DNA of 64,000 nucleotides from assembly GCA_003971905.1 (NCBI GenBank), contig RSEE01000063.1, positions 124,001-188,000 on the forward strand, read 5' to 3'. This document shows positions 3,424 through 58,393 of this stretch, piece by piece. Positions within the stretch are counted from its first letter, which is position 1, and each line of letters begins with the position of its first letter. The notes under the pieces were generated by a model. It made no database searches. It had not been told where the DNA came from and was given only the letters and a program-made list of their open reading frames with translations. Origin of the DNA: Moniliella sp. 'wahieum' (Eukaryota). The translations under genes were made by a program, and so were the position numbers.

Positions 3424-3770
3424 TGTTGAACCATCGGGTGGCTAGTGTTTTGGCCAATGTCCATTCGCTCCTCCTCAGGCCTGGGAGTTCTGTTGTTTTC
3501 TCTCTCCTGTGTTTTTCCTTGTTCCGCAGCTTAGCCCCCGGTGGCGACTCGCTGCTTGCTGTTTCTCTCGAGGTATTGCTGGTTGGCTTAGAACCACCAC
3601 CAGTGCGATTGCACCACCCTCAAAGACCATCCACACTCCAGGTCTCATCAGTTCAAGCCCACTTCCGGACAGAGAGACACGTGTTCACCTAGCTGAACTC
3701 TCCTACAGCGACACCATCACCATCTCCCCAAGAAACAAAATCTGCCAGCCGCATGCGATATCGCCAGAAC
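3424..3770 (+). repeat. Dispersed LTR-like repeat, copy 1 (starts TGTTGA)
   Basis: Reverse complement of 5230-5589, 10583-10792 and 58116-58393 (shared core ggtggcgactcgctgc, cttagaaccaccaccagtgcgattgca). All copies share the TGTTGA/TCAACA terminus. Confidence 0.8.
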
Positions 3771-3799
3771 CTTACCTCAATGGGAAGGAAACCAAAGAG

Positions 3800-4880
3800 G
3801 GTACAATTCCTTCGCCCCCCAGGTGCGCCGAATCTGATCGCTCTCAATGCTTGGCTGATATCAGGATCAAAACAACGCCTGGTACGCTCCCTCCGCAAAA
3901 CATTTGGCGATTCAATGGTTGCTCGAGGCTAACCGCGCGTGCATTGCCTGACAGGATATGTTACCTTCAAAGCCATCGGCATCAACCAAATCTTGGTTTA
4001 AATCGGTACTATTCGGCATGTTGCGCATCTCCACCATAATGTCCTGGTGGAGTATGCATTGAAAATCCCTCCAAAGGGCCAGAGTAACATCAATTTGCGC
4101 CTGGGACAAGCGAGCACAGAGAGCGCGACGCCTAAACACTGGCCCAAGTGATAGCTCAACGCCGCCAGGCTGCTGTGGGTGCGACTCCTTCAGCATACCG
4201 CTAGGAGGGCGCGAGACGGCGTAGGCCCATTACGCGGACCATTCGCCCGTCCCACGCAACTGTTTTGGACGCTACCAACGAGGATGAAGAGTCTGAATAG
4301 TAATGCCGCATCAACTGTGAAGCAGATGTATGAACCACCAGCGACGAAGACAAAACTCTCTCTGTTGGGTATATAGTCGAGCACTGGAACACCAGTGGCG
4401 TTGATATATTAGTAGCCAGCATGCAACCTATAGTAATAAGCAATGAAAAGATGTTCCTTGTCGTTGTGGACCAGGTCACCTGCCGGGTACCTTCAAGCGG
4501 GCGCCTGCAAAATCAACCGCAGAAACCACAGGGCTTCTCAACTCGCGCTGGTTCCGAAGTCACGGCCCTCCGGAAGTGTTGACTGCGGACAACGACGCCG
4601 TCTTCCACTCACATGGCTTCAGCGAAGAACACTTGGCCCAATGGGGGGCTCAGCTAGAGCATTCGTTGCCGTACCACCCACTCACAGGGATTGAATGCTC
4701 CGGCCGAGGCGGAGGTCAAGCGCTTGGAACCAGGTCTGGAAAAAGCACTGTGTGTGACGAGCGGACGCAATATTCCTCTGCCAAAAGGTGGCCGTTCCTG
4801 CTGGAATGGGTAATGAACGCATACAACACCATCCGGGGTGAGGGAATTGCACCATCTTGTTTCCTGCCATTGAGGTAAGG
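3800..4880 (+). mobile_element. Degenerate Ty3/gypsy-type pol relic (RNase H and integrase core)
   Basis: AKHLAIQWLLEANR (~3895-3940) resembles gypsy RNase H ELLAIVWAL. MFLVVVDQ (~4451) and LTADNDAVFHS...LPYHPLTG...WPFLLEWVMNAYNT (4576-4878) resemble the rve integrase core. RNase H-before-integrase order is gypsy-type. Confidence 0.7.
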
Positions 4881-5229
4881 CGAAACCACGGGTCAAGCAA
4901 CAGTGTTGGATTCCTTCTTTGCGCAAAAGGACGTGTGGATAATGTCGCGGCTGATGGGGTTGTGTCCATTTGCCCATGTTGCGACACGTGCACGCCCTAC
5001 TTTGAAAACGGGAGAATCTCTGCAAGACATCAATAGTGATGCCCTGGTATCAGATGGTCCCTCATCTGTTGTGTCTTTTGGCCCTTGCGTGCCTGGCGGA
5101 TTCTTGATGTGCCTGTACATGGAACCCAAGCGTAGCGGGGGGGATCTTTGGACAACACACATTGATATAGTAGGGTTTCACGGTTGGTGACGGGGCACCA
5201 ATGGTTTCCGTTTTCCGGATCATTTTCCG

Positions 5230-5589
5230 GGTTCTGGCGATACCGAATGCGGCTGACTGGCAGATTTTGTTTGTTGGGGAGATGGTGATGGTGTCCCTGT
5301 AGGAGAGTTCCTCAGGTAGGTGAACAGGTGTTCTGTCCGAAAGTGGGCTTGAACGGATGATACCTGGAGTCCGGATGGCCCTTTGAGGGCGATGCAATCG
5401 CACTGGTGGTGGTGGTGGTCTAAGCCAACGAGCAACACCTACAGAGGAACAGCAAGCAGCGAGTCGCCACCAGGGCTAAGTTGCGGAAGAAGGAAAAACA
5501 GGAGAGAGAAAACAACGGGACTCGAAGGCCTGGGGAAGAACTGAAGGGACGGCCAAAGCACGAGCCACGTGATGCATGATGGCTCAACA
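5230..5589 (-). repeat. Dispersed LTR-like repeat, copy 2
   Basis: Inverted copy of 3424-3770; ends ggctcaaca at 5589. Confidence 0.8.
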
Positions 5590-6431
5590 CAGGCCTTTCC
5601 TGAATCCAACCCTCAGGCCCTCAGGCGTCACAATAAATTCCTGCTTGCTACTTGACAGGACTCTTATGATGATTCTCGAGGGGCACGGGACCCCACGCGT
5701 CTCGAGCCTTGAGGGAGCGTCCTACCGCATTATGATGGAGGTTGTGAGCCAAAAGTTGAAGCCGGATGTGACACGTTGGTTTATAGGGAAGACTGTCGCT
5801 GTCACTCACTGGTCGGGGTGTCCATATTTGCTGTCCTATTCGCGGCGCCCGGCAGCTGTAGATCCCTATCGGTAGGTGCTTGTGGGCCGGAGCTCCCTGA
5901 CACAGTATCAACTGAACCTCGTGCTTTGAGTTTTGCCGCTGGCATGAAAAGAAGGTTATGCAATGGGACAAGAGAGACGGCGCTTGTCGTTCTAGTTGGC
6001 TCTCTTGCCCCATCTCTGGGTGTGTTTGCGACGGCCGTTTGTTTTTTGCTGGGTCTCCCGTTGGGTCCTTTTGCACCTGGCAAGCCAGCTGTACGGAGAG
6101 GCCATTTCCGATCTGCTTTAATGGCCCAGGCGGTGTAAGAGCCGGGCGATACGAGTCTGAGGCCAAGCACCAAGGGAAGCAACGGATGCACTGGTAGGAG
6201 CAAGGAGGTGAGAAGATTGGCCTAATTAGCGACAAGGACCGTGACAGGCGGGTGTGGGGGCGGCGCGACGTGTGACGCGAGGGGAATGGGGGCGTTGAAA
6301 TGTTCACGCGGGGGGCGCCGAGCCGCCTGCGTGTGCTCGCTCTGCGCCGCACTCGCCCGCCGCCTGGCCCCTCCCCCTAGCACCGCCGCCGTGGCGCCAG
6401 CCACGCCCGAGTGGCGGCGGCGCATGCACCC

Positions 6432-10582: not shown

Positions 10583-10792
10583 TTTGATGAGACCTGGAGT
10601 CCTGATGGTCCTCGAGGGTGATGCAATTTCACTAATGGTGGTGGTGATATAACTAGCTAACCATCAACGCCTACAGAGGAACATCAAGCAGCAGCGAGTC
10701 GCCACCAGGGGCTTAAGCTGCGGAACAAGGAAACAGGAGAGAGAAAACAGCGGATCTCCCAGGCCTCAGGAGGAACTGAGGATAGCTCAACA
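10583..10792 (-). repeat. Dispersed LTR-like repeat, copy 3 (truncated)
   Basis: gagacctggagtcc...gcgagtcgccaccagggg...caggagagagaaaac...gctcaaca; same orientation as copy 2. Confidence 0.8.
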
Positions 10793-13700
10793 CATTTTGA
10801 TCACGTTCCACCATCGTTCCATGCGCTTTCCCACTGCATATTCAAAAGACGCGTAAGGGGTTGGACCAACTGAACAAGCCCTCCTGGAGACGCCCCCACA
10901 AAAATGTGATTTCTTCACCACTGAGTTAGTGTCGACTGACGCGCTAACGGGGTAATCAAGAAAGTTTGTGGGGTCGAGTGGGGCGGAGGCTACGCTCAAT
11001 GTATATACTCTGCTATAAGCCTATTATATGTCATTATATGTCATGCATCATGTATGTTTGACTTCGAAGATAGTATATAGTTACCAAAGCTATATATTGT
11101 GGCTTAGAAACCAATTGCAGTTCTTTTTGGCTGATGTACAAAATCTTTTAGAGGTCTCCGGTCTCACCAGTGTGTGAGAAGATGGTATAGTGAGTATATA
11201 TAGGGTTCCCCCACACGGTCCTCAAATTGATCGGTAACGCTCGCTTATCGGGGGAAGAGTTCCACTGGCTGGCTGCGCCCCTGCTCGCTATCAACTCTGC
11301 ACCTCCCTTCTCTGCCTCCCGTATCCTTTTCCCTTTAGACGGTTTCGAAATCAGGGAGTAAGAAGGCCGGAGCAACATTCGAGACCTCTGTGAGGGTAAC
11401 TGACCAATGATTAATGACCCAAACGAAGCCGAAGAAGCAGAGAGACGATTGAATCAAGTTACATTAAGCTTTAAGCCTCAATCTAATAGCTCGATCATCG
11501 ATATCATTATACTGCCTCAGGCCTCAGGAAGCCTCGGGCCTCAGTATGTATTACGCATCCTTTAGCACTTCGCGCTTTAAGTTAGCGCTTAGCGCTTAGC
11601 CATTATTCATTGGCCCGTCAGTCATTTTTCTGGTTCATACTGTAGGGTTAAGTAACTGAGCACTGCTCCACAGAGGGAACTCGGATCTCCATGATGCATG
11701 ATGTCTGATGTATGATGACCTTACCAAGGGGCTTAACTAGTAACTGGTGCTTAAATTAATTGAAGCCTGAGGCCCACCCTGAGGCCTGAATATTGCTGTT
11801 GCGTACTTCAGAAATCTGTTAATGGATTGGAGATCTGACGCACTGACGCACTGACGTCTAACGATCTGACGCGTCTGAAATCTCTGACGGTTCTGAAGCA
11901 TTGATGATGCGGTGGCACGCTTTTGACGCACGATGTATGAAGGGAACGGCTCTTTTCCTGATGTGTCACTTGTTGCCACATATCACATGCCATATCCCAT
12001 TGCAGTTCGACAAGCGGCTATGCGCATCTTCGGTAATATCAACCCGATATTGTGTAGTTACTAATTGCAAGCTAAAACCTCTGTAAATGATACGACAGCG
12101 ATATAGCGATGTTCTGAGTATCTAAGGCGGAGAGCTGTCGTGCCCAATATGCCGATAAGGCATTGCTGCCCGTCGCCCTTGGCCACATATAGTGTAATGG
12201 TGGCCTCCCTGGTGATGACAACCTCACCTGAAAAGCGTGACGGAGGCCGAGAGGAATCGAACCCTCTGGCTCGTCGGTCAAGGGGACCTGGCGTAGGCAC
12301 GAAGGCACGAAGCGCGAGCTTTTCGTACCAAAGAGTCGCCGTCCCTCTGCTCCCTCTGCCTTGCACAATAGAGGTAGTTCTCCTTGTGCTATCCTAGCGA
12401 AGGCGGTGCTGAGGCCTGACGGAGGACGTAGAACAGTTTGTTGTTAGAGATGATCGATGAGGCCTGAGGACTTGGAAAACAAGCCGATTGGTCGCTTTTG
12501 CCTCCAATGCACTCTTAGGACAGAGGCGGGTCTTTATATAAACAGAGACAAAGGCCCGCGAGCCATGCAACAATATAGGCAAGCGGCCAGGCTGGTCGGT
12601 TGCAATACCACTCAGCTGAAGGTAGCTCCCGTGCACGCGACGGAGCACTGGCAGATCTCAAAAGCCGAGAGTAGTAAGGCACTAGTAAGCACGGCACAGT
12701 GGCACCAACGGAAATCTTTCCAGGGGCTGCTGCGCATCTTGGCCCTGTGACATGTGACGCATACTTGGTGTATGGTGACTAGGACTAGTGACTAGTGCTC
12801 GATGATCGATCTGGTCTCGGACTGGGGCTAGACCTGTTGACCACAGACTGTTTCCGGAGTATGTCCCACGGTTTAGGCCTTAGGCCCCTTAGGCCTTAGG
12901 GCCTCAGGGGTTCTCTCCGTTTTCGAAAAGGATAGACCACATTCAATACCGAAAGTCACTAGTCACGTGTCACGGTTCATTGAGCCTGCAACATGTAACG
13001 CGTATAGCGCATGGACCGGGGGCATATATAAGACCCCAGATCCGGAAGCTTAATAATTCCTAAGGGGCTCTAATGGAAAGGGAAAATGATCCATTTGCAC
13101 GCAACGGAGTGTACATGCCATTACTCATTCGGGTTGTTTAAGGACGGAATGAGAAGAATGGGGGAAACGTAGGATGAGTAACGCCACGGAATAGCAGGAG
13201 GGGCGCGCACGTGATAGAGGCACGTTACAGACACCATCCATAATGATGCGTGACGTTGGGCTTTTTAGGGTATGCCCAGTTGAGCGCTCAGCCTAAAATG
13301 GGTTCGTTTGTCGGGGGTTTGCCACAGCAGTGGCCCCGTCGAGCAGGGGTCCGCGCCGTGATACGCACGAAGGCACAGTTTGGCAACACATTATCAAGAC
13401 CTCGAATGTCCGGCCGAAGGAATCAGGCATAGTGCATAGGATCTTGCCGTCAGGCCTCGGCCTCACTGACGTCTCCGTGCAAGATGTCCTTACATGCCGA
13501 TGAGTATACTGAAAAGGCTGTGGCGTCGAGTACGTTGGGCGCTCTAAAGCGGCCGAGAGCACAGAGCACAGAGTCTTCATGGAGTGATACGAAGATATGT
13601 GGGAGAAGCCAAAGGGCGATCAGGCCCAACAGGCCTCTCAGAATGCACACAGAGAAGCGTATGCCTTTGTCAGTCAGTCCTCAGGTACTCGCTACTCTGT

Positions 13701-15572
13701 GCTCGACGTAAACAGCCGCCGTGGGATGCCGAACAATTAAGAATGATATACAAATGGTGATGCACGCTGTGACATGTGGAACCAGCAATACACAATGTGA
13801 GAAAGTAGTGCCTGCAGAGATTCGTCGGTTACCGGGGCCGGTCACCAGTCACCGGGTCACCAGTCAGTACTCAGTACTCAGTGTATTATATTCAGGTACT
13901 CACAATACTGAAACTCAGTACTCACAGTGTACTCAGTCGCCTGAAGCGCGAGCACTCTCTCAGATCTCACATCTCACATCAAAAAGACGAGTGGTGCAGT
14001 AGGTGACTTGTGAGTGTGACGGGTGGCATATAGACGTCTGTATAGTACTATCTTGTAGGATACGTTTCTATTGGGGTGGACTTGAAGCTGAAGTTAGGAA
14101 ACTTGAAAAGCTGTAGGAAGCAGAAGGTTATAAGCTCTCGAAGCTTGAAGCTGGAAGAAGAAGGTTAAGCTCTCGGTTCAACGTTCAGGGAGAGGCCCCT
14201 GCGTAGAATGTGCTCTAATTGCTGTATACGACGTACCACACATATCATATCCCCTTCCCACTTGACAGTGGCTAATGATTGTGTGACCAGCATACTAGTG
14301 TCTGCTCCTCTCTTGGTCCCATTTCGACATGTCATGGTCTCCATCTGTATACCACACCGTACAGAGACAGACGCAAGCACGTAATGGATGGCTCCACGCA
14401 CTCAAACGGGCCCTGAGGCCCGAGTAGGTACTGAGGCCTGAGGTGGCCTCAAGTGCTAACCGGCATCCTGTGCCTCATATACATCACACATGCGTCGTAG
14501 CGCTGAAGCTTCAAGTTTCAAGCTTCAAGCTTCAAGCCTCAGGGTCTACAAGATGGCGAAGCGCCAGGCACAGATACGGAAATGCTGATGCGCTCAGGCA
14601 TCTCCTTTCCCCAAGGGCACAGACAATCCTAGTGATGGCAGCGGGTTCAAAACGTTCAACGTTTTGTTACTTCACGTGTTGTAGCCGCTGTACGCCAATA
14701 AAAACATGAACATCAGAGAGAGAACCACTTTTGGTACCCCAAAAAGTATCAATGTCCCCATTACCATATATATACACTTTGTTGGGGAATTTTTGTGGGG
14801 AGCCTGCTGGCCACATACACGGGGGAGCGGACAGGAAAAGCGGGGAGTCTCGCTTCCAGCTTTCCCAGCTTCACTGCAAGCAAGCCAAGGCTGTCAAGCT
14901 TCAAGGCACAAAGAAAGATGCAACATTGAGCGTGTGGGACAGATGGTGATACTGGATACTGTAGGTAGGCTGCTGGCACGAGTAATACTGAGCAGCGCAC
15001 TAGCACTGAAACTGAGCACTGATGCCTCGAAGACCTCGGTGACCGGTGACCAGTATCGGGCGATATCGATCGGATGTGACATGTGAGATGGCCGATGATT
15101 AGGACTTGTGATGGCCCTGAGATCCCTGAGATGCAATGTGATATTGGGGCTGGCCGGTTTTTGTTCCGTCAACTTCATCAAACATCATCGATGATGGTCA
15201 TCAATCAATATCATGTGGGTATATGAGGAGTAACTATAGCAAGGCATCTCATTGGTCGGTCGTCGTTCACTCCTTTGCTTAGAAATTACGTGGCACCATC
15301 CCCTCTTTTCCTCGCTCTTGTTATCCGACCACCACCACTCCTTTAACCACAAGCGAACTGGCACAAAAGCTACACGACGGATTGCACCTTTGCCGTCAGC
15401 GAAAGCACCTCACTCGTTTCCACTTCCGCGAATAAAGGCAGCCAGATTAATCGAAGTGATCAATCGGGATTGCGACGAATATTGAGTGAGAAAGCCCCAT
15501 TATTGCTGCTTTTCGGCCGCCATTAACATATTTCTCTCAGGTTCAAGCATTGATGGCCTCTGCTGAAGCACT

Positions 15573-17880
15573 ATGGACGAACCTGTAGTACAGAAGAGTG
15601 TTGAGACCCAGTTCGAAAACACAAGGGGAAGAAGGAAGTCGATATCGGGGTGGAGGCCTTCAATAATGAAGAAGCGGTCGGTCCAACTATGTGGAGAAGA
15701 ATCTCAAAATGGCCAACGAACCCCTACGCTTGCGAATAAGTCTCATTGGCAAGCGAGTCGAGACCATTCTCGATCTCGCAAGTCTATCAGCGACCTGAGG
15801 TTCTCAACCGCATCTAAAACATCAATGAGTGCCAATGCCACCGATCAATCACCCGCCACTTCACTGCACACGGGGGGCTGGATGGATGAGTTACGATCGA
15901 GAATGTCCAGCAGAAAAAGTCGGGAAGTGCCTCGGACCTCGATGGACCCCGCCTGGGGGAAAGAGAGTGCATTGCGACATCCGACAACGCTCCTGATTCC
16001 CCCATAAAGGCAAAGCCCTGGTCTTCTCGACGATGGTGGAAACCGGCAATTATCGTCTCTGGTCCTGATTCGGGACCGACTTCCCCGACCAATCTGAGCA
16101 ATGCGTGGACCCCTGCTGGTGAACAGCGTTCAAAGTCCTCTTTTCATCGGGCTCATTCATTGGATGCAGTGGCATTTTCAGAGAAGGGGTGTAGAGAAGA
16201 AACGGCCGGGAGAGCGCAAGATCATGTCTACCTCCTCCTCGACTCCCTCTTTTCGTCCAGACCGAATATATTCTCTCGCATGTCTATGTCACAACACCGG
16301 AGCGAAACGAGGTCCCTGTCGATGGATGCTGGTACCACATTGGGCGTAGCTCAAGGGCCTAGGCATTCGTTCGGATTCAAACGCAAACTTGCCATTTCGC
16401 TCTCGTGTAAGCATGTCCAATGATGCAGAGTCTACAACAGCACCACCGGTTGTTGAAGCGGAAACGACACTTACTGGCGAATCAAACCGCTCCCAAACCG
16501 CTTGGGCTCCGTCGGCGGACACGAACCTTTCTAAAACGATGGAGGAGGTCTATTCGATCCCTGCCCCGCCCAAAGGGGAAAAGAAAAAGCGCATTGCCCT
16601 TCTCCCCACCCGCTTGCTCCAATTCAAGTCCATCAAAACACGGGCCGGAAGAAGCGCGGCATCAATGGCCCTTTCACGAGTCACCCACCTCGATATTGCC
16701 GCTGTTCTTCCACCGCAGGATCTCGAATCCGAAATATCCACAGTATCAGTGATACGCGCTCTTCTCCAAGGACAGAGCTATTCGCGCTTGTCCTGATGAT
16801 GGGGGTTCGAGTTCCATGCACGATTCAGTGGAAGTTTCCGAGACAGGATTGGCGTCCATTGGGACGACAAGATACCAAGCAAGCCTCCGCGTGGAATTCC
16901 CGCAGAGGTAGAGGGCCGGAAAGAGACTTCATTGGAGCAAGCGACTGTTACCGACATTCTTTTAAAGGAATGGAAACAAAGTTGGGACCAGTCATCAGGA
17001 GAACAGCAAGTTGCTCCTTCCGTTACAGCGAGCGGACCATCAGCGGATACCTGTTTTTCCCCGCCCACCTTGGATGGAGGATCACCAAGAATCCTCCACT
17101 TCTCTACTTCTTGATTTCGATCTGCAAATGTTCCCTACACCTACATCCCGAAGCATCTTTTCTGTACCGGAACGAAACCGTGATCGTCCTACGAATCTCG
17201 CCCCCGTCAGTCGTGCGTCTTACACTGGGCCCCAACACCGCCCCACCCTCGTTTCTCACCCCCCTGTTAGCATTTTACGATCATCCACGTTGGGAAGACG
17301 GGGCGTCCCCAAATGCCCGGGTCCTCCTCCTCTTGCCCCTTTGCCACCCATCCCCGAACCCAAATCCTTTTATTCCTGAAGACCTACTGCCAGACACCGA
17401 ACGGACACTTGACATATATATGCTTGCCTAGAGCAGGTCGATGCCCACCCTCCACGCAATCCACCAACGAGCCGTATGGTGGGTCCAATACGACTCTCGA
17501 TGCCTTCATTTTCCTGCGGAGGAATGTGCCATACTCATAATGCCAAGCCTCGACGACAACACGAGATGATGTGAATAATCCGAATGAGACACACGTTCGC
17601 TTGCAATGGTTAACGATAGCTGTGAGTAGCAGCAGCGATTTTGGCAGGTTCTTATCTTGACTCTGTAGCATCGATGCTGCACACAACTTTGGACAACAGT
17701 GTACATCTACTTCTCAATAGTAATGAGAGTAGGCCGCAGCCATCCAACTTCCTTCTCAATAAGACCGATAACCCGTTGAACTACTGGACTACGCCAACAG
17801 CGCGTAGCTACTGTTGGACGATGGGGAGACCGTTCTTGGCATGCGTACGGCAAAAGCGGACTCAAGCGGTCATCTAGAGA
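15573..17880 (+). CDS. Hypothetical Ser/Arg-rich protein (frameshifted; end uncertain)
   Basis: Chain of same-strand protein-like ORFs starting MDEPVVQKSVETQFEN (15573-16007, 16160-16423, 16389-16796, 16932-17114, 17641-17877). No domain recognised. Confidence 0.45.
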
Positions 17881-18314
17881 GCTGGGCCGGCTGTCGTGTG
17901 CAGGAAAAAAAACAAGTAATCCCAATGCGAATCATTGCCGCCCCGACTGTGAAGAGGAAATGTCCATAAGGAGCCCAGGATGCAAACTCGTATTCATCCT
18001 GGGCCCTTCTACCGCAGTTGCCGGAGCTCCTCCATTTGAGATAGATCCCTACGCCACGTTCGCACCCAGCTCAACATGATTGCATATATAGAACCGCAAG
18101 CACAGAGGTGGCCGGGGCACACAAATGTATTGGAGTGCGGTGCCGATACAACAGAAAGAAGCAGACGGTAACTGATAACAACAGAGGTGAAGGGGGGTCT
18201 CCAATGAAAAGCAAACGAGGAAAGGGGAACGGGGCAGTATAACACGGTAAACGTTATCGCAGCAAAATGTAGATAGAAATGGTGGCCATGGATGCCTTAG
18301 AGGCCAACGAAGAC

Positions 18315-30563: not shown

Positions 30564-32702
30564 CCCACAGCAGCCAAAGGGTCCAAGCGCCTTCGTCGGT
30601 CGCGACAGAGAACCCTTAAGACGTGTTTTCGTGACTCTCTCCCTCCACCAAATAAGGGGACCCTTGTGCCCTTTGTTCGCATTTATTCCTTCGACACTAC
30701 CTTTTACGATCCCTTTACGATCGATGTTTTCCTGATGCCCCCACTTTCTTTTTTGCCCCGATTATCCCGGCCCCCATCCCGTTTCTTGGGCCTCCTTCTA
30801 ATTCTTAGCCCTTCAAGCTTCAATATCCGTCGGCCTTTGCACCGTGCTACTCAATATTCATCCACCATTTGAATGTTCTGTTCCGTTCTGGGTGCTGATC
30901 CAGCGCTGAGCCCACACCCACACATCTCTGAAGCATTCCTGTGAGCTCCGCCCTAGTAGCCCTTTTAATTGTCAAAGCCCACCTGACGAGCGTCAAGAAC
31001 GATGAACGACGAACGATGTCGATGAACCTATAAATGTCATCAATTCTCAACGCCTTTGAACATCAAACCTCTCAAACAGGCTCAAATGCAGCCCCCGCCT
31101 CTTTTCAGATAGCCAATAGTACGCCCTATGGAAATCCCGATTTGGCTCTCTGTTACCTCCTTCTCAATGTCGTACCTAATACGATGGAGAGGCTGTTGTG
31201 GATGAACGGTGAAAACGCACGCCTGACAAATTCTTTTGTGGAAGCGATTGCGTGTAGTCGGCACTTAGTAGTAAGCAGTGCATATTAGTGCGAACACAAA
31301 TGAGAGCTCTTTCTTCACAGTCGTGTGGTCAAGGGTAGGATGATTAATGATTAGTGGCCAAAATGTCTATTCCAACACTGAGTCTGGGATTCAAAAACGT
31401 GTGGTATGCTCTTTTTCGCAGAGATGGCGCCCGTCAACCAGGGGATGCTGAAGCGCTGAAGGCGCTGCGCAAAAAGATAACGTGCAACAGGGGACCGTTG
31501 GTTGCAGGCGCGTAAACGCAGAGCCTGGTTGAGCGCCGAGCGTACGTGGTGGCACCATTGCGTTCGTTCCTTTTTCGTCTTGACCATATGCCAAACGTTA
31601 TGAACATCTTTGCATGAGGCCGGCCGAAGAAGGCGGAGGAGTCAGAAGGAGCATGGTATGCCGTTGGTGCGAGTGCCCCATGTGCCACATGCCCTTCAAG
31701 TTTCGCTGGGCCTGAGGGATGCGGAAGGGTGCTCAGGCTGAGCGCTCAGGCTGAGCTGAGCGGCGCATATTCAGCGCTGAGGCTCAACGCGCTCAGGCGC
31801 TCTGGCTGGACAAGGTTGCACTCGATGGTCTCGCTGAGCGCTCGCTGAGCACTGATGACCTCGTGCGACTGCCAACGTTGAACAGTTCAAGTGGAAGTTG
31901 AACGTTCAAGTTGAACCTCGTCTTCGCTTCTGCCCAGTGCTCAATCGGGGTTATCGATTAGCGATCTCATCCATATCATCCACCATAGCGTGAATCACGC
32001 GCACGGCGCGCCACACCACACGGGTTCTGCCGTGGCGGTGAGGCGCTGAGGCCAGCGCCCGTGCTCAAAAGTGCTCAACAAGTTCTCAAGCTGAATATAC
32101 AAGCGAGGTTCCACCGCCCCGCCTGAGCGTGCCGTGCCTGGGCCTCAGCCTGAGCTCAGCCTCAGCCGCGCTGAGCTCAGCGCTCCTCGTCCCTCTTGTC
32201 AAGCGAATCATCAGGCTTGACTTGTAACATGTAAGCTTAGGCGCTTAGGCTAAGCGCAAGCCTTCGCCATGGCAGCGCAGTCACTAGTAGAGTCTCGTCA
32301 TGAAAGTCATCGATCATCGACCACACCGGTTGGAAATTCTCGAAATGCGCAGCGCCTGCCGCCTCTTCGCAGCTCTTTCCCTCGCCTGTCACATGTCACA
32401 TGTCACGTGTCACGTGTCACCGGCACGGTGACATATAATGACCCTGTCATCTGCCCTCTTCAACGCAACCAACGTCCAACCAACCGTTCAGTAATCCATG
32501 TTCATCCATGTTCATGCATCATGACAGTAACGCGTAATGATCGAGATCGATCGTCTGCGTCAACGTTCAGTTCAACGTTCAACGTTCAACGAACGTTTAG
32601 CCGTCGTCGGCTGGCTGTCCTGTAGGTTGCGACCCTGCGGCCCCCGCAGATCCCCCAGGTACCTCCCATACCTCCACCTCACCCGCTGACTCTCCGCCCC
32701 GT

Positions 32703-37436: not shown

Positions 37437-37647
37437 TGTTGACCACCAGTGGTCTAGAGCCCATCGGCCTTCAGTGACACGTGGCCCGATCCACACAGTG
37501 CACCGGGGCAGTGAGTTCCGACCCTTCCACGGGTTTCCACTGGCCTCCAGGCCAGGAGCCTATCAAGGCCCATAGCTCTAGCTCTCCTTAGCTCTTGAAT
37601 GCCATCTCCATCGACCATCGCCAGCATCGCTAGCTAGGCCTGTGACA
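37437..37647 (+). repeat. 5' LTR of the copia element
   Basis: tgttgaccaccagtgg...ggcctgtgaca, repeated at 42487-42697. Confidence 0.97.
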
Positions 37648-37666
37648 GAGCTACAATCTGAAGCAC
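37648..37666 (+). promoter_or_regulatory. Putative primer-binding site complementary to an internal tRNA anticodon arm
   Basis: GAGCTACAATCTGAAGCAC abuts the LTR with no TGG. Reverse complement reads TCAGA-TTGTAGC-TC, i.e. stem plus 7-nt loop. Confidence 0.6.
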
Positions 37667-37794
37667 CCCACTGGCGCAAAGGATCAATACTCAGCACCAC
37701 CATCGGCGCCCACCGTCACCACCACCACCCCAACGCCACCATCGGCACCACACACCAACCAATTCAAAAAAAAACAAAGGAAAAATCAGCCACC

Positions 37795-40700
37795 ATGCCC
37801 CCGAACTGGAAGAAAACACCCCTCCTCCCGAAGTCTCTGTCATCGAAGAGGCGCAGGACATCGACGAACCGACCACCACCCCTGTCTCCGACCCGACCTG
37901 GCAACAGGCCCTCACCGACGTCAGAGACAACCTCCTCGCAAGCACCCGCGCGTTCAAGCCCACCAGCGCTGACAATCTCCGCTCCACATGCCGCTCGTTC
38001 GCTACGGATGCACACACGGCGGCGTATGGACCGAAGAGCAAGAAAACACCGGGCGGAAAGGAAAATTGGATCTACACGCTCACCCTCGCGTTGGAGAAAT
38101 ATGTATTGGCCGTTGAATTCACGAAGCCGCAAAACACCCGTGAGGCCCTTGCATCCGCGAGTGAGGACATGGCCGAGCTTCGCCACGCTGAGAAACGCGC
38201 GTCAAAAGATCGAGCGTACCAACGCGACGCGCAAGGACGCCTTCCGCGACCCCACCGAATATGTGCTCTGGGAGCCCTCCATCCTCAACATCCTGGACCG
38301 CATCCACCCCGCCGCGAAGGACATCGTTCGCTCCGGTCCATCGTCACCACACTACGACTCGTCCCTCGATCTACGCCTCCAGAACCTTCTGTGGTCCCAC
38401 CTCCCGAACGACGTTCAATCTGCCATTATTGCACAGGACAACGTTGACACGTCAGCTGACTTGCTCCGTGCCCTGCGAAACAAATACGGTACGGTCGACT
38501 GCAAGACGTATCATGAATTGTCCAGTCGCTTTCACCACTGCTACCAAAACCGGCGCAGCGGGAGCGCGTTCCTATCTGAAATGGGGACGCTCCGCAACCG
38601 GATCAGCGCAACCACACCGATGTCGGACGAGCAATTCCGCCGTATCCTCGTCGGGGCCCTCCGCGACCCTGGTGACCGTCGCCGCCTAGAGCACATGACT
38701 CTGGCGGAGACAATGCAAGACGTGGAGAGAATCCCAGCGGACCCAGAGTACAGAATTCCGTACCGGGGCCGTCACCCCCGGACCGCCAACTCGGGCGCTG
38801 GCAAACACGACAGCGCGGGATCCCAGCAGCATAGCGGGGGTCCTCCTGCCGGTGCATCTCCCCGTAGCGGGGGTGCTCTTGCGAGAAAGCCGTCCGGCCA
38901 CACCGGGGTTCCTTCGAACAACAAATGGCACCGCAACAGCTCCGCGCGAGCGCACATTGCCACCGAAGACGACGTCTCCGAAGGGAGACCCTGTCTGTGG
39001 ACCTTGCCCTATCTGACAAATAGGAACTCGCGGGCAACCAGGACATCCAGTCTCGTCACGACTCGGGCGCGGATCCTAGCATCTGGAAGGATCTCAGGGT
39101 ATTCAAAACCCTCAAGCCCAGCAACCGCTCAATCGAAATCGCTGATGGAAAACATATTAAAGCCAGTGGACGCGGAACATGTAGCATCGGTATCAAGTGT
39201 ACCGACGGCAAATGTATCCATGTAGACCTACCCGGCAGTCTATACGTCCCCGGCATAGCAAGCAATCTCACGAGCGTAGCGCAAATAAGTGACGCAGGCC
39301 ACGCATCCTGGTTCGCCCCCACCGAAAAGGTATCTGGTTAAATGACAAGCATGGCAAATATCACCAAATCGCGGATTCCTCATACAAGCTGAACATCGTC
39401 CCGAAACCGACACCCACAAACGAACACGCGGCCAAAGCTGCCGTCGCCACCCAACACACCGCAGCCAACACCATCGAGCACGTCATGTACGTTCACCAAC
39501 AGTACAACCACGCCGCGCTAGACCTACTCCCGACACTAACCGCCAACGCGCGAGCGAGCCTCCGCGTCAGCCCTGCCCAAATCCGACGCATCCGCCCCTT
39601 CTGGCATTGTCCCACCTGCACAAAAGCTCTGGCCAAAGCGCCCAGCCACCCTTCGCGCCACGGCCGCCGCATTTCGGAACGTCCTTTCGAAGTACTGCAC
39701 GCCGACGTAGTCGACCTCCCTCGCATCACTGGCATGGGACATGGATACGCCCTGGTCGCGGTTGATGACTGGAGCCGTTACACCTTCGCTGTTCCCCTAA
39801 AGACGAAAGGACAAGCCACGGCGGAGCTGAAAAAACTCATCACCCGCGAGCAACGCATCGGAAAGGACCGTCTGCTTCGCATCTTGAAGACAGACAATGC
39901 CCCCGAGCTCACCAGCGCACTCCGTCCGTTCCTTGAATCCGAAGGTATCACGACGGAAACCACCATACCAGGCCAAAGTCAATCAAATGGGGTGGCCGAG
40001 CGAGCCATCCAGGCAATCACCACACACGCGCGCGCCAACTCATCATCGCCTCGGGCCTCCCGACATCAAACTGGTGGCAGGATGCCTTGCTGGCAGGGTG
40101 CTGGACGCACAACCTCATGCCACCGACATCTCCACGCCAGGGCACACAATCTCGGGCTGAGCTGTACAAGGGGTCACCCCCACCGCTGCCAATGCACGCC
40201 TTCGGATCCTTGGCGTACCTTCACCTGGCCCAGGACCAACGTGACCATAAGCTCAGTCCGCGGGCTGTCGAAGCCATGCTCGTCGGGTACGACGCAGGTC
40301 GAGGTACAAAGGGTTGGCGCTGGGCTGTGTACGACCCGTCCATGGGCACGTTCCGATCCCAATGGGCAAAACCATACAAGTGGACCCAGCGCCAATACCA
40401 CGAGGTTTTCCCCGACCGCTTTCCGCCTGACGTATCTCGCTTCCCCTCAACCCCTGCCTGACAGAACTATGACTGACACTGAAACCAAAAAGGGAGAAGA
40501 AAAAATGAACAAAATTGAAGTTGCAAATCCCAACACACCACCGAGAATCAACACTGATACTGACGCGACCATCGCAAGACAAAACGACACCCATCCAACC
40601 ACCCCCACCACCAGACGGTACCCCGCCCGGACCCACCAGCGCCGTTTTGACCTTGACTGGGCACAGCTCCCCGTAGCGGACGACCCTCATGATGGTGACT

Positions 40701-42492
40701 TCCACGCACACGCTGCCGCGCTGCCTCCGGTTCCCCTCCCTGACGGTAGTCGTAGTCCTGCGATCGGCCTACGCTTCCCACTGCCCGACACTGCCCTGCC
40801 CGCGTACAGCGACGGTCTCCATCCGCCTGAATACAAGGCGATGATCGCCCTTAGCGAGCCAGGGCCGCACGAGCGCATCCAGCTCACCAAGGACGGAGTA
40901 CCTGTTGCACCCAAGACAATGAAGGGCCTCCAATCACACCCCTCATTCGAACCAGTGCTGGAGGCGATGCGCACGGAAATCGACACCCTAGCCCGCTACG
41001 GCACATTCGAAGTCGTCACGCCCCCTCCAGACGCGCAGCTGCTGATTGGTCTATGGCGCATCAACACCAAAACGGACGCGGACGGAAATTTCCTACGCTA
41101 CCGAGCCCGTCTCGTTGCCGGGGGCCACCAGCAGGATGCTGACACATGGGGACAAACATTCGCCCCTGCCGTGCGCACTCCTGCCATCCTCAGCCTTATC
41201 GCCCTTGCTGGAAAGTTCGGCCTCCACCTCTTCACTGCTGATGTGCACTCTGCCTATTTGAACGCTCCCCTCACGGAAAAAGTGTACCTCCGCCCACCCC
41301 CATTCTTTCCCGAGGAAAAAGGCAAGGTCTGGCGTCTCCGGAAAAGCCTATATGGCCTCCACCGGCGCAAACTGGGCGGTATTCATCCGTGACTTGCTCC
41401 GCGGAGACATGGGTTTTGTACAATCTCTGGCTGAGCCGTGCTTGTTCATCCGACCCCGTAAAGGCGACACGGTCCTCCTTGCCGTGCACACCGACGATCT
41501 TCTCATCGCCTGCACGTCTCACGCACGCTACGATTCCTTCCTCACTGAGATCAACACCCATATCGAGGTGCGGGGAAACGGCCCCCTACACTACCATCTT
41601 GGCTGCCAGTACGACACCATAAACGGGAAACTGTACCTTAGCCAGCCAAAATTCATTGAGGAATCCATTGCCAAACATGAGGTTCCGCCACCCCTGGTTA
41701 TGGGCCTCCCCCACCCCAGCAAGATGATCCCCGCGCGCACCGACCCCGAACCGCCCGCACTGCCCGCAGAGACGCGACTATCAAGCCAAAGTAGGATCTG
41801 GGCTGTGGGCTGCCCGCATGTGCCGCCCTGATGCGCTGTTCGGCATCTCAGCTCTAAGCCGAGCAACTGCCGATCCCTCCAAGGCCCACCGCGCTGCGGC
41901 AACAAACTTCCTCCGCTACCTCTACGGTACCAAGGGCTACGGTCTCCGACTAACACCCGAGCCTAACGCACCCGCTCTCGCGCTATACACGGATGCCGAC
42001 CTGGCTGGAGACCCTGACCAATGGCGTTCCACGTCGGGATGCCTGCTTTTCGTCTACGGGGTTCCAGTGTCCTGGAGGAGCGTGCGTCAACCCAAGAGCG
42101 TCACCAACACTGCTGCGGCCGAATATACGGCGGGATATGAGGGCCTCATTGATGCGAACTACGTTAAAAACATCTTACTGGAGCTCGGTGCCATCACCTC
42201 AGACGAGCCCATACACTGGTACTGCGACAACATGGCGGCACTTGCCTTGGCCGAAAAAGTGGGCAGCACGGGCAAACTACGTGAGCTGAACATCCGGTAC
42301 CACAACGTACGCCAGCATGTCGACTCGGGCGAAGTCAAAATCGCGCACATTGCTGGAAACGAGAACCCGGCCGACATCCTCACCAAACCAGCCACTAAGG
42401 TCTCACTCCTGGCCAACTTGCCTCGCCTCAAGCTTGAGGACGTTACAACCTTCCATCGTACCACTGAGACCTCTGGCCAGCGGGGGTGTTGA
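37795..42492 (+). CDS. Copia Gag-Pol polyprotein (split by apparent 1-bp errors)
   Basis: Gag ADLLRALRNKYG; protease DSGA (39060); integrase HQQYNH..CPTC, HADVVD, TDNAPE, NGVAERA; RT YRARLVAGG, DVHSAYLN, KSLYGL, VHTDD; RNase H YTDAD, AAEY, CDN, NPADILTK. Stop lies inside the 3' LTR. Confidence 0.93.
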
Positions 42493-42697
42493 CCACCAGT
42501 GGTCTAGAGCCCATCGGCCTTCAGTGACACGTGGCCCGATCCACACAGTGCACCGGGGCAGTGAGTTCCGACCCTTCCACGGGTTTCCACTGGCCTCCAG
42601 GCCAGGAGCCTATCAAGGCCCATAGCTCTAGCTCTCCTTAGCTCTTGAATGCCATCTCCATCGACCATCGCCAGCATCGCTAGCTAGGCCTGTGACA
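42487..42697 (+). repeat. 3' LTR of the copia element
   Basis: Identical to 37437-37647; preceded by cagcggggg and followed by the GGGTT duplication. Confidence 0.97.
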
Positions 42698-44371
42698 GGG
42701 TTGACTAAGTTGAGTCCTGCCCCCCATTCAGTTTTGTAGGATTGAAGTTGGAAGGTGCCGGTGTGTTTTGAATTGGTTCAAAACGTTCAAAGGAACCTCG
42801 CGCATCACCCAGTTCGTTCTTCAGTGTACCACTCAGTGTACTCAGGTGCATATCTGACCGCACAACACGACGCTAATGAGATCGCTGACATCGATCCTGT
42901 CCCACTCGACGCGATGAGGCGCGCAGTGATGAGGTTGTGAGGTGGGCTCTGAACTGAGATTACAGTGTACTCAGTACGCTCAATACTCAGTCTGAGTACT
43001 CAGTCCGAGTACACAGTTGAGTTCAACACTCAGTGGACGTGGAATTATCGGAATTATCGTTCTTTCCAGAGATCATCCCGTTCGCGTTCATCCCTGCTAA
43101 CGCGCTCCCGCGCGCTCGCGTTGCGGCTCCATCACACGCACGGAAGAACTGTTGGGGTGTATACTTAGCAACTGTGAGTTACTTCTGTTTTCTTGAAGGG
43201 ACACTCAAGCTGCCCCTCCTGCTCACCGGTCACCGTCGACGACCGACTGCAAACAACTTTCAAAATCCATCTTGCGGTTGGAGCGGCCACTCGGATACTC
43301 CTTGCGCTGATCCGAACGTGTCAACGACAGGCATACGACACCGTGACGCGTGATAGGGCGCAGGAGAAGATTTGAGTTTGCACAACGTTAAAGCACGTCA
43401 AACGTTAAACGGTAAACGGTAAACGTCAAACAGGCGGATCCAGAGGTGAGCGCGGGTGCGGGCCAGTGCGGCATGCGAAGCATCCGAGACGCGAGGTGAG
43501 TGCTCCGGCTGAGGAGCGCGCGGGTGCAGGCGGGGGGGCGGTGCCGCGGCCGGGATCTGCTGGGACTGAGACAGACACAGGCGCCGTGGGGACGGGCCAA
43601 GCCGCCCGCAATGCAGTGGATCGCTGTGTGCGGAGTAGAGCATGGGTGAGAGGGGGTGATCGGTGATCGCGGTTTGAGGATGGGAGGTTGTGGATGGGCG
43701 CAGGCAGCTCCACCAGAGCGCACCAGGCCCCAGGGCGGAAGCCCGGCGGCCGGCACTCGGCAGGCTGCCTGCCACCCTCGTGCCTCCGTGGGGCGTGGGG
43801 CCAGCGGGGCAGGGCAACAGCTGGGGGCAGGAACGAAGCTGCGTCGTGGAAGGCCAGCGGGTGGCCCTGGCGCGGGCGGGGCACTGCAGCGCGCTGCCTG
43901 GTGCCTTCGCATCCGGAGCTCCTCAGCACCCGGCGGGAGCCTGGCGTGGCTCGGCGTGTTCGTCTTTGTTGACGCACGTTGAAGTTGACGTTGAGCCGTT
44001 GGGCGCTTCGAGGGCGAGCACGCAGGCACACGCACTGGTCCGCTGTGCCCAGTCTGTCGCCCCACCCCCGCCCGCACGCCATGTCGTACGGCACCGCGCA
44101 GCACCACACCGCAGCACGCCGCAGCACCTGTCACATGTCAAGATGTCAATGGCAGACAGGCACGCACGGGGCCAGCAGCGGCCGGTACCTGCATTGCGGC
44201 TGTGCGGGCCCCCGCCGGCCGATCGTCCCCCCACGGCGCAGCGCCAGTGTGGCCAGCGGCGTTCGGCCCGCTGAGACGGCCGCCGGTCTCTTCCTGGATT
44301 AGCGCTTGGCCCCAGACAGCACCCTCGCCTGCCTCTCCCCGTCCACCCCCCCCACCCCACCTCTCCTCACC

Positions 44372-50091: not shown

Positions 50092-51008
50092 GTTGTTCCA
50101 CGGTGGGGAGAGCCGAGCGCGTGCAACAAAGGATGCGGAGGGCGGGGAGGGTAGTGGTAGTAGTAGTAGGAGGAGTGGCAGCAGAAGAAGGGCCAAAAAA
50201 GCACGAAGGAAGGCCGACGAAGCCTGGTGACCGAAGAGGGGAGAGCTGCCGTCGAGAGTCTATAGACAAAACTGTCGTCGTAGAAGCGAGTGGCGTCGGT
50301 CTTTGCGAGGCTAGACAAGGGAGGGGCCGTGTGGAAACAAGGAGAACACTCTGCGCGCATAACGCCTCGTGCGGCTGCGCTGCCACGCGCGTGCCATCGC
50401 ACCATGGCTCCATCCCAAAGTCTCCACGGGTGGACGATGGACTACGGCAGAGAACGCTGGGACGGTGGCGGACAGAAGTGGACAAGGGTGGAGACGAGTA
50501 GCGGCGGCCGGTGATTGATGATTGGGGACTGACGCGGTGACCCGGTGACGGAGCAAGAGAGTATGAAGAGCAGGGGGTGCAAGTGATGCATGATGGGCGA
50601 TAGGTGATGATCGATGTGGTACCACGGGGACAGTATCCACTCCAGCAAGTTATCCACACGCCTGGGATCACTGCCCCTCTGCGGGTGGGGCTAGTTTCGG
50701 TTAGTATATAGTACGGGTGATGTCTTCTATCCACGGCCCACGTCCACCGCGGCAAGTGAATGAAGTCACATGCACATGTCACAGTGACTGCTGCTCGCGC
50801 TCATCCAACTCTTCTTACCCCCCCCCAGCAACTGCCATCTCTGTCGGAGCCGGCTTCGTAGAGTGCATCGACAATGGGGCATTGCATACGGAAGTAAGTA
50901 ACTGCTCACGCGTCCTCTCCTTCCCGCCTTCGGAGCGGGGGGAACGAGTTCGTGTTCCATCTGGTCCTTGGTCCTTGGTCCTTGGATCTTGTTGTTATTA
51001 TGGTGGCG

Positions 51009-58115: not shown

Positions 58116-58393
58116 ATGAGACCTGCAGTCCGGATGTGGTTGGTCCTCGAGGGTGATGCAATTGCACTGGTGGTGGTGAGGGTCTAAGCTCTAAGCCTAG
58201 CAGCAACGCCTACAGAGGCACCATCAAGCTTCACGCAGTGAGTCGCCAGCAGGGGCTAATAAACTGCGGAACAAGGAAAACAGGAGAGAGGAAACAACGG
58301 AACTCGTAGGCCTGAGGTTCAGGCCTGAGGAGGAACTGAAGGGACGTTGGCCACGTTGAAGAGCCAACCGGTATCATCGCTCGTGGCTCAACA
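58116..58393 (-). repeat. Dispersed LTR-like repeat, copy 4
   Basis: gagacctgcagtccggatg...gggtgatgcaattgcactggtggtggt...gagtcgccagcagggg...ggctcaaca; homologous to copies 1-3. Confidence 0.8.

Follow-up and report, generated by a model that had tools for sequence, protein, structure and literature searches.

What kind of process fills intergenic DNA with unrelated 7-base repeats that share a T-N-A centre (N, any base)? The question arises from a 64,000-nucleotide stretch of the Moniliella sp. 'wahieum' assembly (C63:124001-188000, out of 69.5 Mb in 223 contigs), hereafter the window, to whose first letter plain positions refer, and it centres on the interval 11460-15210. A reading made from the letters alone (the sequence-only reading) had quoted eight examples, all of which lie where it placed them, and had ascribed them to repeated insertion and excision by an unidentified enzyme that cuts with a 7-bp stagger and closes the flanks as hairpins in the manner of hAT transposases. 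We conclude, with a probability of about 0.8, that the repeats are excision footprints, here called scars, of cut-and-paste transposons with terminal inverted repeats (TIRs), of an EnSpm-related (CMCT) lineage that duplicates 7 bp of target. The unidentified cutter gives way to at least one source elsewhere in the genome, a TIR family with remnants of an EnSpm-type transposase.

Results

Geometry of the scars

We wrote the target as XY-TNA-ZW, with a prime for the complement, and sorted the products present in 428 kb of non-redundant DNA into classes. Two products that lengthen the target by 7 bp, a right type (XY-TNA-ZWW'Z'-TNA-ZW) and a left type (XY-TNA-Y'X'XY-TNA-ZW), occurred 133 and 114 times, respectively, alongside 84 cases at palindromic sites, 40 plain 7-bp duplications and 7 double-palindrome hybrids, with ~1 expected in each class. 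The arrangement of a TNA, a 4-bp palindrome copied from the flank and the same TNA was found 331 times, against 2.4 expected. The sequence-only reading had taken the plain 7-bp repeat as the typical unit; such repeats are enriched, but they number 40 against the 331 that carry a palindrome copied from one flank. The 10-bp palindromes of the form TNANN|NNTNA that it had singled out are likewise in excess, both in the window (13 versus 1.8 expected, and 13 of its 75 perfect 10-mer palindromes) and in the 428 kb (26 versus ~1.4), but these perfect inverted 10-mers, in which the core is inverted, form a minor class.

When the palindrome was held fixed and the target on its far side was required to recur, products of +7, +8, +9 and +10 bp numbered 415, 43, 34 and 0, respectively; because the series stops between +9 and +10, the duplicated target is 7 bp. 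In the +9 class, two palindromic bases are flanked on either side by the entire 7-mer (at 12878 and 15116), three +11 cases carry both palindromic pairs (0 expected), and shorter products were also seen (+6, 54 versus 6.8 expected; +5, 49 versus 32). Palindromes with an even centre two bases from TNA numbered 780 versus 24 expected, and those with odd centres 43-60 versus ~25. Thus, the duplicated target is 7 bp long, and an even palindrome has its centre where the duplication ends, so that the flush tip contributes two palindromic bases. These counts agree with the 7-bp stagger and point to the flank hairpins proposed earlier, but the hAT-like form of the hairpin has to be given up for a flush one like that of RAG and Transib, since the palindromes are even and not odd.

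The T-N-A centring holds up as well: among odd 7-mer palindromes in the window, those with a T-N-A core were enriched (284 observed, 164 expected) and the remaining cores were not. Isolated scars show little flank preference. Events with the exact 7-bp geometry also occur at off-consensus cores (TAC at 6095, TAG at 50707), and the T-N-A rule is therefore strong but not absolute. We considered joining through T-N-A microhomology as the main route and dropped it, as the core base is unchanged in 331 cases and inverted in 26; such joining may be the source of the minor inverted-core class.

A resident family of TIR elements

Short-motif pattern searches recovered a 4,849-bp TIR element on contig C11 (L144:1741-6589), with an 83-bp TIR at 93% identity and 11-bp sub-terminal repeats in opposite orientation at its two ends. 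The ends of this 4.9-kb family are CTCACTGA, that is CT and then CACTG, bounded by a 7-bp duplication. The end pattern matched 51 times, versus 36 for the control; many of the 51 matches are due to chance, and 12 of them make six facing pairs. Five of these pairs (on C20, C23, C29, C34 and C35) are flanked by a perfect 7-bp duplication, in every case of the form NN-TNA-NN; the duplications were read from the letters of the matched ends, and the C20 and C23 copies are known by their ends alone. Both the proposed NN-TNA-NN target and the TIR elements that the sequence-only reading had suggested seeking were thus found, with a matching transposase that is decayed. The copy at C20:546811-547188 is shorter than 400 bp, has both ends and the perfect duplication, and appears from its letters to be a derivative of the size of a miniature inverted-repeat transposable element (MITE). 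Two other approaches to the ends gave nothing usable: a first end candidate on C1 was rejected as single-copy, and a loose scan for TIRs plus duplications contained only chance pairs among the matches listed.

Within the C11 copy, three collinear transposase pieces match a profile of 46 Transposase_21/EnSpm-type proteins (best E-value 1.2e-10). Of the DDE triad and the C(2)C and H(3-4)H motifs of EnSpm/CACTA transposases, the parts around the cysteine pair, the histidine motif and the final E could be aligned in this decayed gene, and no alignment was obtained around the first D. A search with the reading frame of the element gave no relatives among longer proteins or metagenome contigs, which is a weak negative. 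The interior of the element holds four scars of its own. Copies are 98.9-99.3% alike, and this similarity, together with an empty homeologous site described below, shows that they moved recently.

Element versus scar at homeologous sites

The whole assembly consists of two chromosome sets that differ by 2.6-4.1% substitutions and many indels; a hybrid, a dikaryon and a mixed sample are alternative explanations. Three element sites were looked up on the homeologous contig, of which one was empty, one scarred and one (C38, in a repeat) uninformative. Over 1.5 kb, the C35 copy matches the C11 copy at 99.3% identity. On C46, the site homeologous to it is empty and has a single 7-mer; the insertion is therefore recent and its 7-bp duplication proven. 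The C29 copy is 94.5% identical and has GT-TGA-TG on both flanks. At its homeologous site, C53 reads GT-TGA-TGCA-TGA-TG, which is the exact right-type scar predicted from that target. Because about 2% of TNA sites bear an exact scar (324 of 15,334), the probability that C53 matches by chance is small, though not nil with one case, and an independent visit to a favoured C53 site would likewise be of transposon origin.

Scar gains between the two copies of the window

A diverged second copy of the window region lies on C107 (the homeolog; ~90% identity with gaps) and served as a natural before-and-after comparison for the following scars, none of which has an assigned strand.

11462-11475, no strand: single right-type +7 scar (CA TTA AGCT TTA AG); the homeolog has the empty site
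11515-11528, no strand: +7 scar at a palindromic target (CC TCA GG twice); the homeolog has one copy
11580-11600, no strand: three-unit array at a palindromic target (gcTTAgc); common to the homeolog (older)
12408-12421, no strand: right-type scar within a solo long terminal repeat (LTR); missing in the homeolog and in seven other aligned copies
12449-12469, no strand: compound of two steps; its left-type scar is also in the homeolog, its right-type scar only in the window
12871-12900, no strand: array (ccTTAgg) containing the +9 scar 12878-12893
13862-13882, no strand: acTCAgt array of three units
14502-14543, no strand: six-unit array; the homeolog has a different unit mix at the same place
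15116-15131, no strand: +9 scar (CC TGA GA, TC, CC TGA GA)
15185-15194, no strand: inverted-core 10-bp palindrome of the minor class; similar ones at 31771, 58699 and 59502

The scar at 12408 is a gain, because it is missing from the homeolog and from seven other copies of the LTR. Scars are gains; old ones are common to both chromosome sets and new ones differ. The sequence-only reading had suggested a comparison for 7-bp indels, and the two copies, which differ in length at 2,068 places within 147 kb, indeed show a peak at 7 bp (n = 68, versus 47 at 6 bp and 35 at 8 bp). Thirteen of 31 clean 7-bp events match the left or right product exactly, and 3 more do so at a non-TNA core. In the homeolog, one TNA site (window 26706) carries an insert of 82 bp with scar-like ends, which may have been captured as filler where an excision broke the DNA.

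Ordinary microsatellites, transcription-factor sites or an assembly artefact could claim some of these data: 35 of 54 multi-unit chains (among 324 chains) are uniform and may owe their length to slippage, and 6-bp repeats are enriched too. Against such an origin, the palindromic spacers come in all 16 forms and match the local flank, 9 of the 13 exact product matches cannot be tandem copies, and old scars are shared by both chromosome sets whereas new ones differ. In addition, the other 19 of the 54 chains mix spacers and are therefore not slippage products; together with the element-scar pair, they uphold the repeated insertion and excision proposed earlier. This explanation is largely refuted, and we regard it as barely credible.

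An error of replication or repair free of any element, by fold-back or template switching at T-N-A in the manner of small inverted triplications, is also quite unlikely. A scar is formally a duplication/inversion/duplication, and some exact events have non-TNA cores (3 of 31). Known triplications, however, are far larger: in the data available from PMC13334657 their arms measure 148/160/148 bp in the median, with spacers of 30 bp and 6 bp of homology at the junctions, whereas in the scars the inverted piece always has 2 bases, and spacer and homology are both lacking. Moreover, fold-back predicts neither a sharp stop at 7 duplicated bases nor the element-scar pair.

Abundance and distribution

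Exact tandem duplications in the window exceeded the expectation from block-wise order-2 Markov shuffles at 6 bp (73 versus 17), 7 bp (59 versus 2.9), 8 bp (14 versus 1.3) and 9 bp (14 versus 0.3), in line with the claimed over-representation of 7-bp units. The TNA-palindrome-TNA motif occurs 84 times in the window, with 25 of these in 11460-15210. Its anticipated depletion in coding and young transposon DNA was observed: nine Pfam-bearing frames of the window, 9,081 bp in total, had none, a 5.2-kb young copia-type insert had none either, and alignment bins that look coding held 6 motifs in 68 bins, compared to 129 in 518 non-coding-like bins. The motif was in excess in 20 of 20 genome stretches counted. 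In 17 of them, chosen regardless of content, there were 126 motifs in 180 kb versus ~4 expected, which extrapolates to roughly 47,000 scars in the assembly. All 16 palindromic spacers are present, spacers match the local flank, and the pattern is common to the independently assembled second chromosome set.

Transposase_21 loci and family searches

Transposase_21 was the only transposase family matched in the genome family searches. A near full-length Transposase_21 gene, single-copy and spread over several frames, lies at C34:513000-517000 (L030, L096); no TIR and no homeolog were found for it, and its frame breaks could be decay or assembly error. A second, unrelated Transposase_21 gene is present in both chromosome sets (C17:555900-559500 and its homeolog on C62), with decayed relatives on C65, C17 and C45. 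No TIR was found at C17/C62, at C34 or at the decayed relatives on C65/C17 and C45, and the C17 frame gave no relatives among longer proteins, a weak negative.

A host-kept, TIR-less EnSpm-type protein encoded at C17/C62 or C34 might itself cut DNA, or move tiny cargo, and so make most scars without the 4.9-kb family. The two loci have no TIR within 10 kb, the C34 gene covers most of the profile, scars exceed resident elements by thousands, and their target is broader. All three genes, however, are broken across frames; a bare cutter would not give target duplication followed by flush hairpins, which requires insertion and fill-in first; and resident elements with the correct duplication are present. 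We judge this origin unlikely.

Searches with PF05699, PF13359, PF10551, PF18758, PF18759, PF14372 and PF20231 gave no match in the genome; four of these searches had no working positive control, and absence is not shown by them. They bear on whether another superfamily, hAT7 or Kyakuja, made most of the scars with the EnSpm-like family a bystander. Both have 7-bp duplications in basidiomycetes (available text of PMC12730594), and the targets of the resident TIR family are narrow. On the other side, hAT palindromes are odd-centred, whereas here even centres number 780 and odd ones 43-60 versus ~25, and no hAT (PF05699, PF14372) or KDZ (PF18758) match was found in searches of the genome that had no working positive control. 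This possibility seems to us very unlikely.

Other features of the window

Two LTR features served as references.

37438-42698, + strand: young copia-type LTR element; control outside the scar system, lacking in the homeolog
12193-12752, + strand: old solo LTR of a multi-copy family; outgroup for polarising scars

The copia-type element has LTRs that are 97.4% alike, a 5-bp duplication, and integrase and reverse transcriptase frames. The chromosome sets also differ by further solo LTRs, 170-180 bp long, at 12284, 13725 and 17743-17925, the third with a 5-bp duplication and without clear TG..CA ends. Polymorphic inserts of 170-220 bp were considered as MITEs, and this identity was rejected, as they are solo LTRs with 5-bp duplications. 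A trehalose-phosphate synthase frame is 70-72% identical to Ustilaginomycotina proteins, which marks the host as a relative of the smuts. The segment 1754-4436 is inverted relative to the homeolog.

An inverted 340-bp pair at 3432-5574 contains a dispersed 230-bp repeat, which is also found at 10585-10782 and 58116-58353 and within the 4.9-kb TIR element. The start of this repeat resembles a hammerhead ribozyme core, and Rfam gave no match to it. A dispersed 81-bp repeat with copies 85-95% alike occurs at L033:7888-7968 and L040:4417-4497 and in L014, L038, L062, L067 and L075; it forms one inverted pair on C107 and had no Rfam match in L040. Scans with Rfam and for tRNAs gave no matches.

Discussion

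Proposed mechanism

Insertion duplicates all 7 bases of XY-TNA-ZW. Excision would then close each flank into a flush hairpin and lose no base, in the way that RAG acts on coding ends, a step suggested by the even palindromes at the duplication edge. RAG leaves a flush hairpin. A host nuclease of the Pso2/Artemis type may open these hairpins two bases 3' of the tip, giving 4-base 3' overhangs, ZW W'Z' and Y'X' XY, on duplexes that end at TNA. Pso2 and Artemis are described as cutting two nucleotides away from the tip of the hairpin, on its 3' side (PMC3299998), and hAT, Transib, RAG and Muta1 form hairpins on flanking DNA (PMC5499845; both sources available in part). End joining would retain one overhang and drop or overlap the other, yielding the left or right +7 product that is observed; the second overhang may be trimmed, or may be overlapped and resolved later. 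If either overhang can be kept, left and right products should be nearly equal and the core base unchanged, as observed. Partial trimming would give +8 and +9, no trimming +11, and loss of both palindromic pairs the plain duplication. Finally, scars create new TNA targets, on which repeat visits and slippage would build arrays, as the mixed chains in part show.

The predicted fold of a family relative, P0143 (predicted local distance difference test score, pLDDT, 82.7), was closest to RAG1 (Z 17.8, root-mean-square deviation 4.4, 475 aligned), followed by Transib (Z 14.9), P element (10.4) and Hermes (6.7).

Evidence that weighs against the proposal

Several results count against excision by EnSpm-related elements. 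A direct Pfam scan of six reading frames of the C11 element gave no family, no intact transposase was found among the Transposase_21 loci and element copies examined, and the fold prediction comes from the relative P0143 and not from the TIR element itself. The sixth facing pair, that of the C11 copy, has flanks that are both NN-TNA-NN yet unequal, with open frames on either side, possibly through an adjacent deletion or an exchange between copies. A scan of ~0.9 Mb of sequence, overlapping in part and made when the TIR family was not yet known, found no resident element. There is just one element-scar pair. Of the 31 clean 7-bp events, 15 have no exact product match, several being off by one substitution, and 16 are not matched exactly by the model or by slippage; a simulation of slippage at these places failed to separate the models (13 versus 7.8 of 64), in a control of weak design whose sites already contain arrays. 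Scars cluster above random, with a variance twice the mean, and either open chromatin or local hopping could be responsible. Finally, GA, CA and GT make up 10 of 10 half-sites in the five resident duplications, compared to 124 of 390 scar half-sites. With targets this narrow, the 4.9-kb family alone does not account for the scars, and either more families contributed or the surviving elements are biased. The family ending in CTCACTGA is thus one identified source, and many of the scars are probably the work of related families that prefer other flanks.

Comparison with known systems

The statements that follow about published systems extend to the available portions of the papers cited. Fungal EnSpm/CACTA elements and the CMCT clade (PMC12730594, PMC12810828) share with the C11 element a TIR, CACTG within the end and Transposase_21-type remnants. 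Duplications are 2-3 bp long in EnSpm/CACTA and 2 to 5 bp across the clade (PMC12730594), and 2 bp in CNEST (PMC12810828), compared to 7 bp here, and EnSpm termini are 5'-CA..TG-3' (CAC, CACTA/G; PMC12730594), whereas the ends here are CT and then CACTG. We found no description of footprints for fungal EnSpm/CMCT elements in the available portions of PMC12810828 and PMC12730594, and the former does not mention excision either. The C11 element also has both TIRs and sub-terminal repeat arrays. This combination is a feature of EnSpm/CACTA elements.

V(D)J coding joints and Transib (PMC5499845, PMC12216023) share the flank hairpin, opening by the host, two palindromic nucleotides and end joining, and a RAG system in yeast exists (PMC12216023). 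The ends here differ in bearing a 7-bp duplication; their joints vary far less and are spread over tens of thousands of sites in the germ line of a fungus. The Transib duplication is 5 bp. The flush flank hairpin of Transib and RAG is matched here as far as the even palindromes at the duplication edge indicate, and the fold of the family relative is closest to RAG1. Footprints of Ac/Ds, a hAT element, in Candida albicans and yeast (PMC5873905) share short palindromic additions from flank hairpins and short arms, but there the palindromes have the complement of the bordering base as their centre, in contrast to the even ones here, and the duplication is 8 bp rather than 7 bp. hAT7 and Kyakuja share 7-bp duplications in basidiomycetes (PMC12730594) and belong to other transposase superfamilies; Kyakuja is described without TIRs in the available text (PMC12730594), whereas the element here has long ones, and the genome search for the KDZ domain (PF18758), run without a working control, gave no match.

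The 10-bp repeats of Ustilago maydis, suggested to be transposon footprints (PMC4081816), are likewise many small intergenic repeats in a smut host, taken for traces of vanished elements, but differ in length, and no palindromic rule or source element is described in the available text of that paper. A survey of excisions in rice (PMC4423477) read element against footprint at orthologous sites, as done here; those excisions were mostly messy (8 of 94 perfect, with a mean of 18 bp lost and 13 bp of filler), whereas one product dominates here. Our literature search, in which supplements were not covered, found no account of such a scar or of a 7-bp EnSpm duplication; the hAT7 and Kyakuja targets of PMC12730594 may bear on this. 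The system thus works like RAG/Transib excision with an EnSpm-related protein, and departs from two defining EnSpm features, duplication length and termini.

Implications

More tentatively, and on balance doubtfully, the elements would represent a separate RAG1-like lineage with a 7-base stagger that has acted as a long-term hit-and-run mutator, perhaps through a host-kept transposase without ends acting in trans. Its ~24,000 scars per chromosome set would then be a main source of new intergenic DNA and of heptamer repeats, and the first genome-scale natural record of flush flank hairpins made by EnSpm-type enzymes.

Through the element-scar pair, an indel signature seen genome-wide is connected with a named kind of element, and with the resident family the duplications of the CMCT clade reach a length of 7 bp. 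The scars offer in vivo evidence on cutting by EnSpm-type transposases, linked to RAG coding ends; to our knowledge, such cutting has not been settled biochemically. With tens of thousands of joints whose input ends are known, hairpin opening and end joining in a basidiomycete become measurable from sequence. The scars also show one route by which tandem repeats arise, and repeat annotation would label all of them microsatellite.

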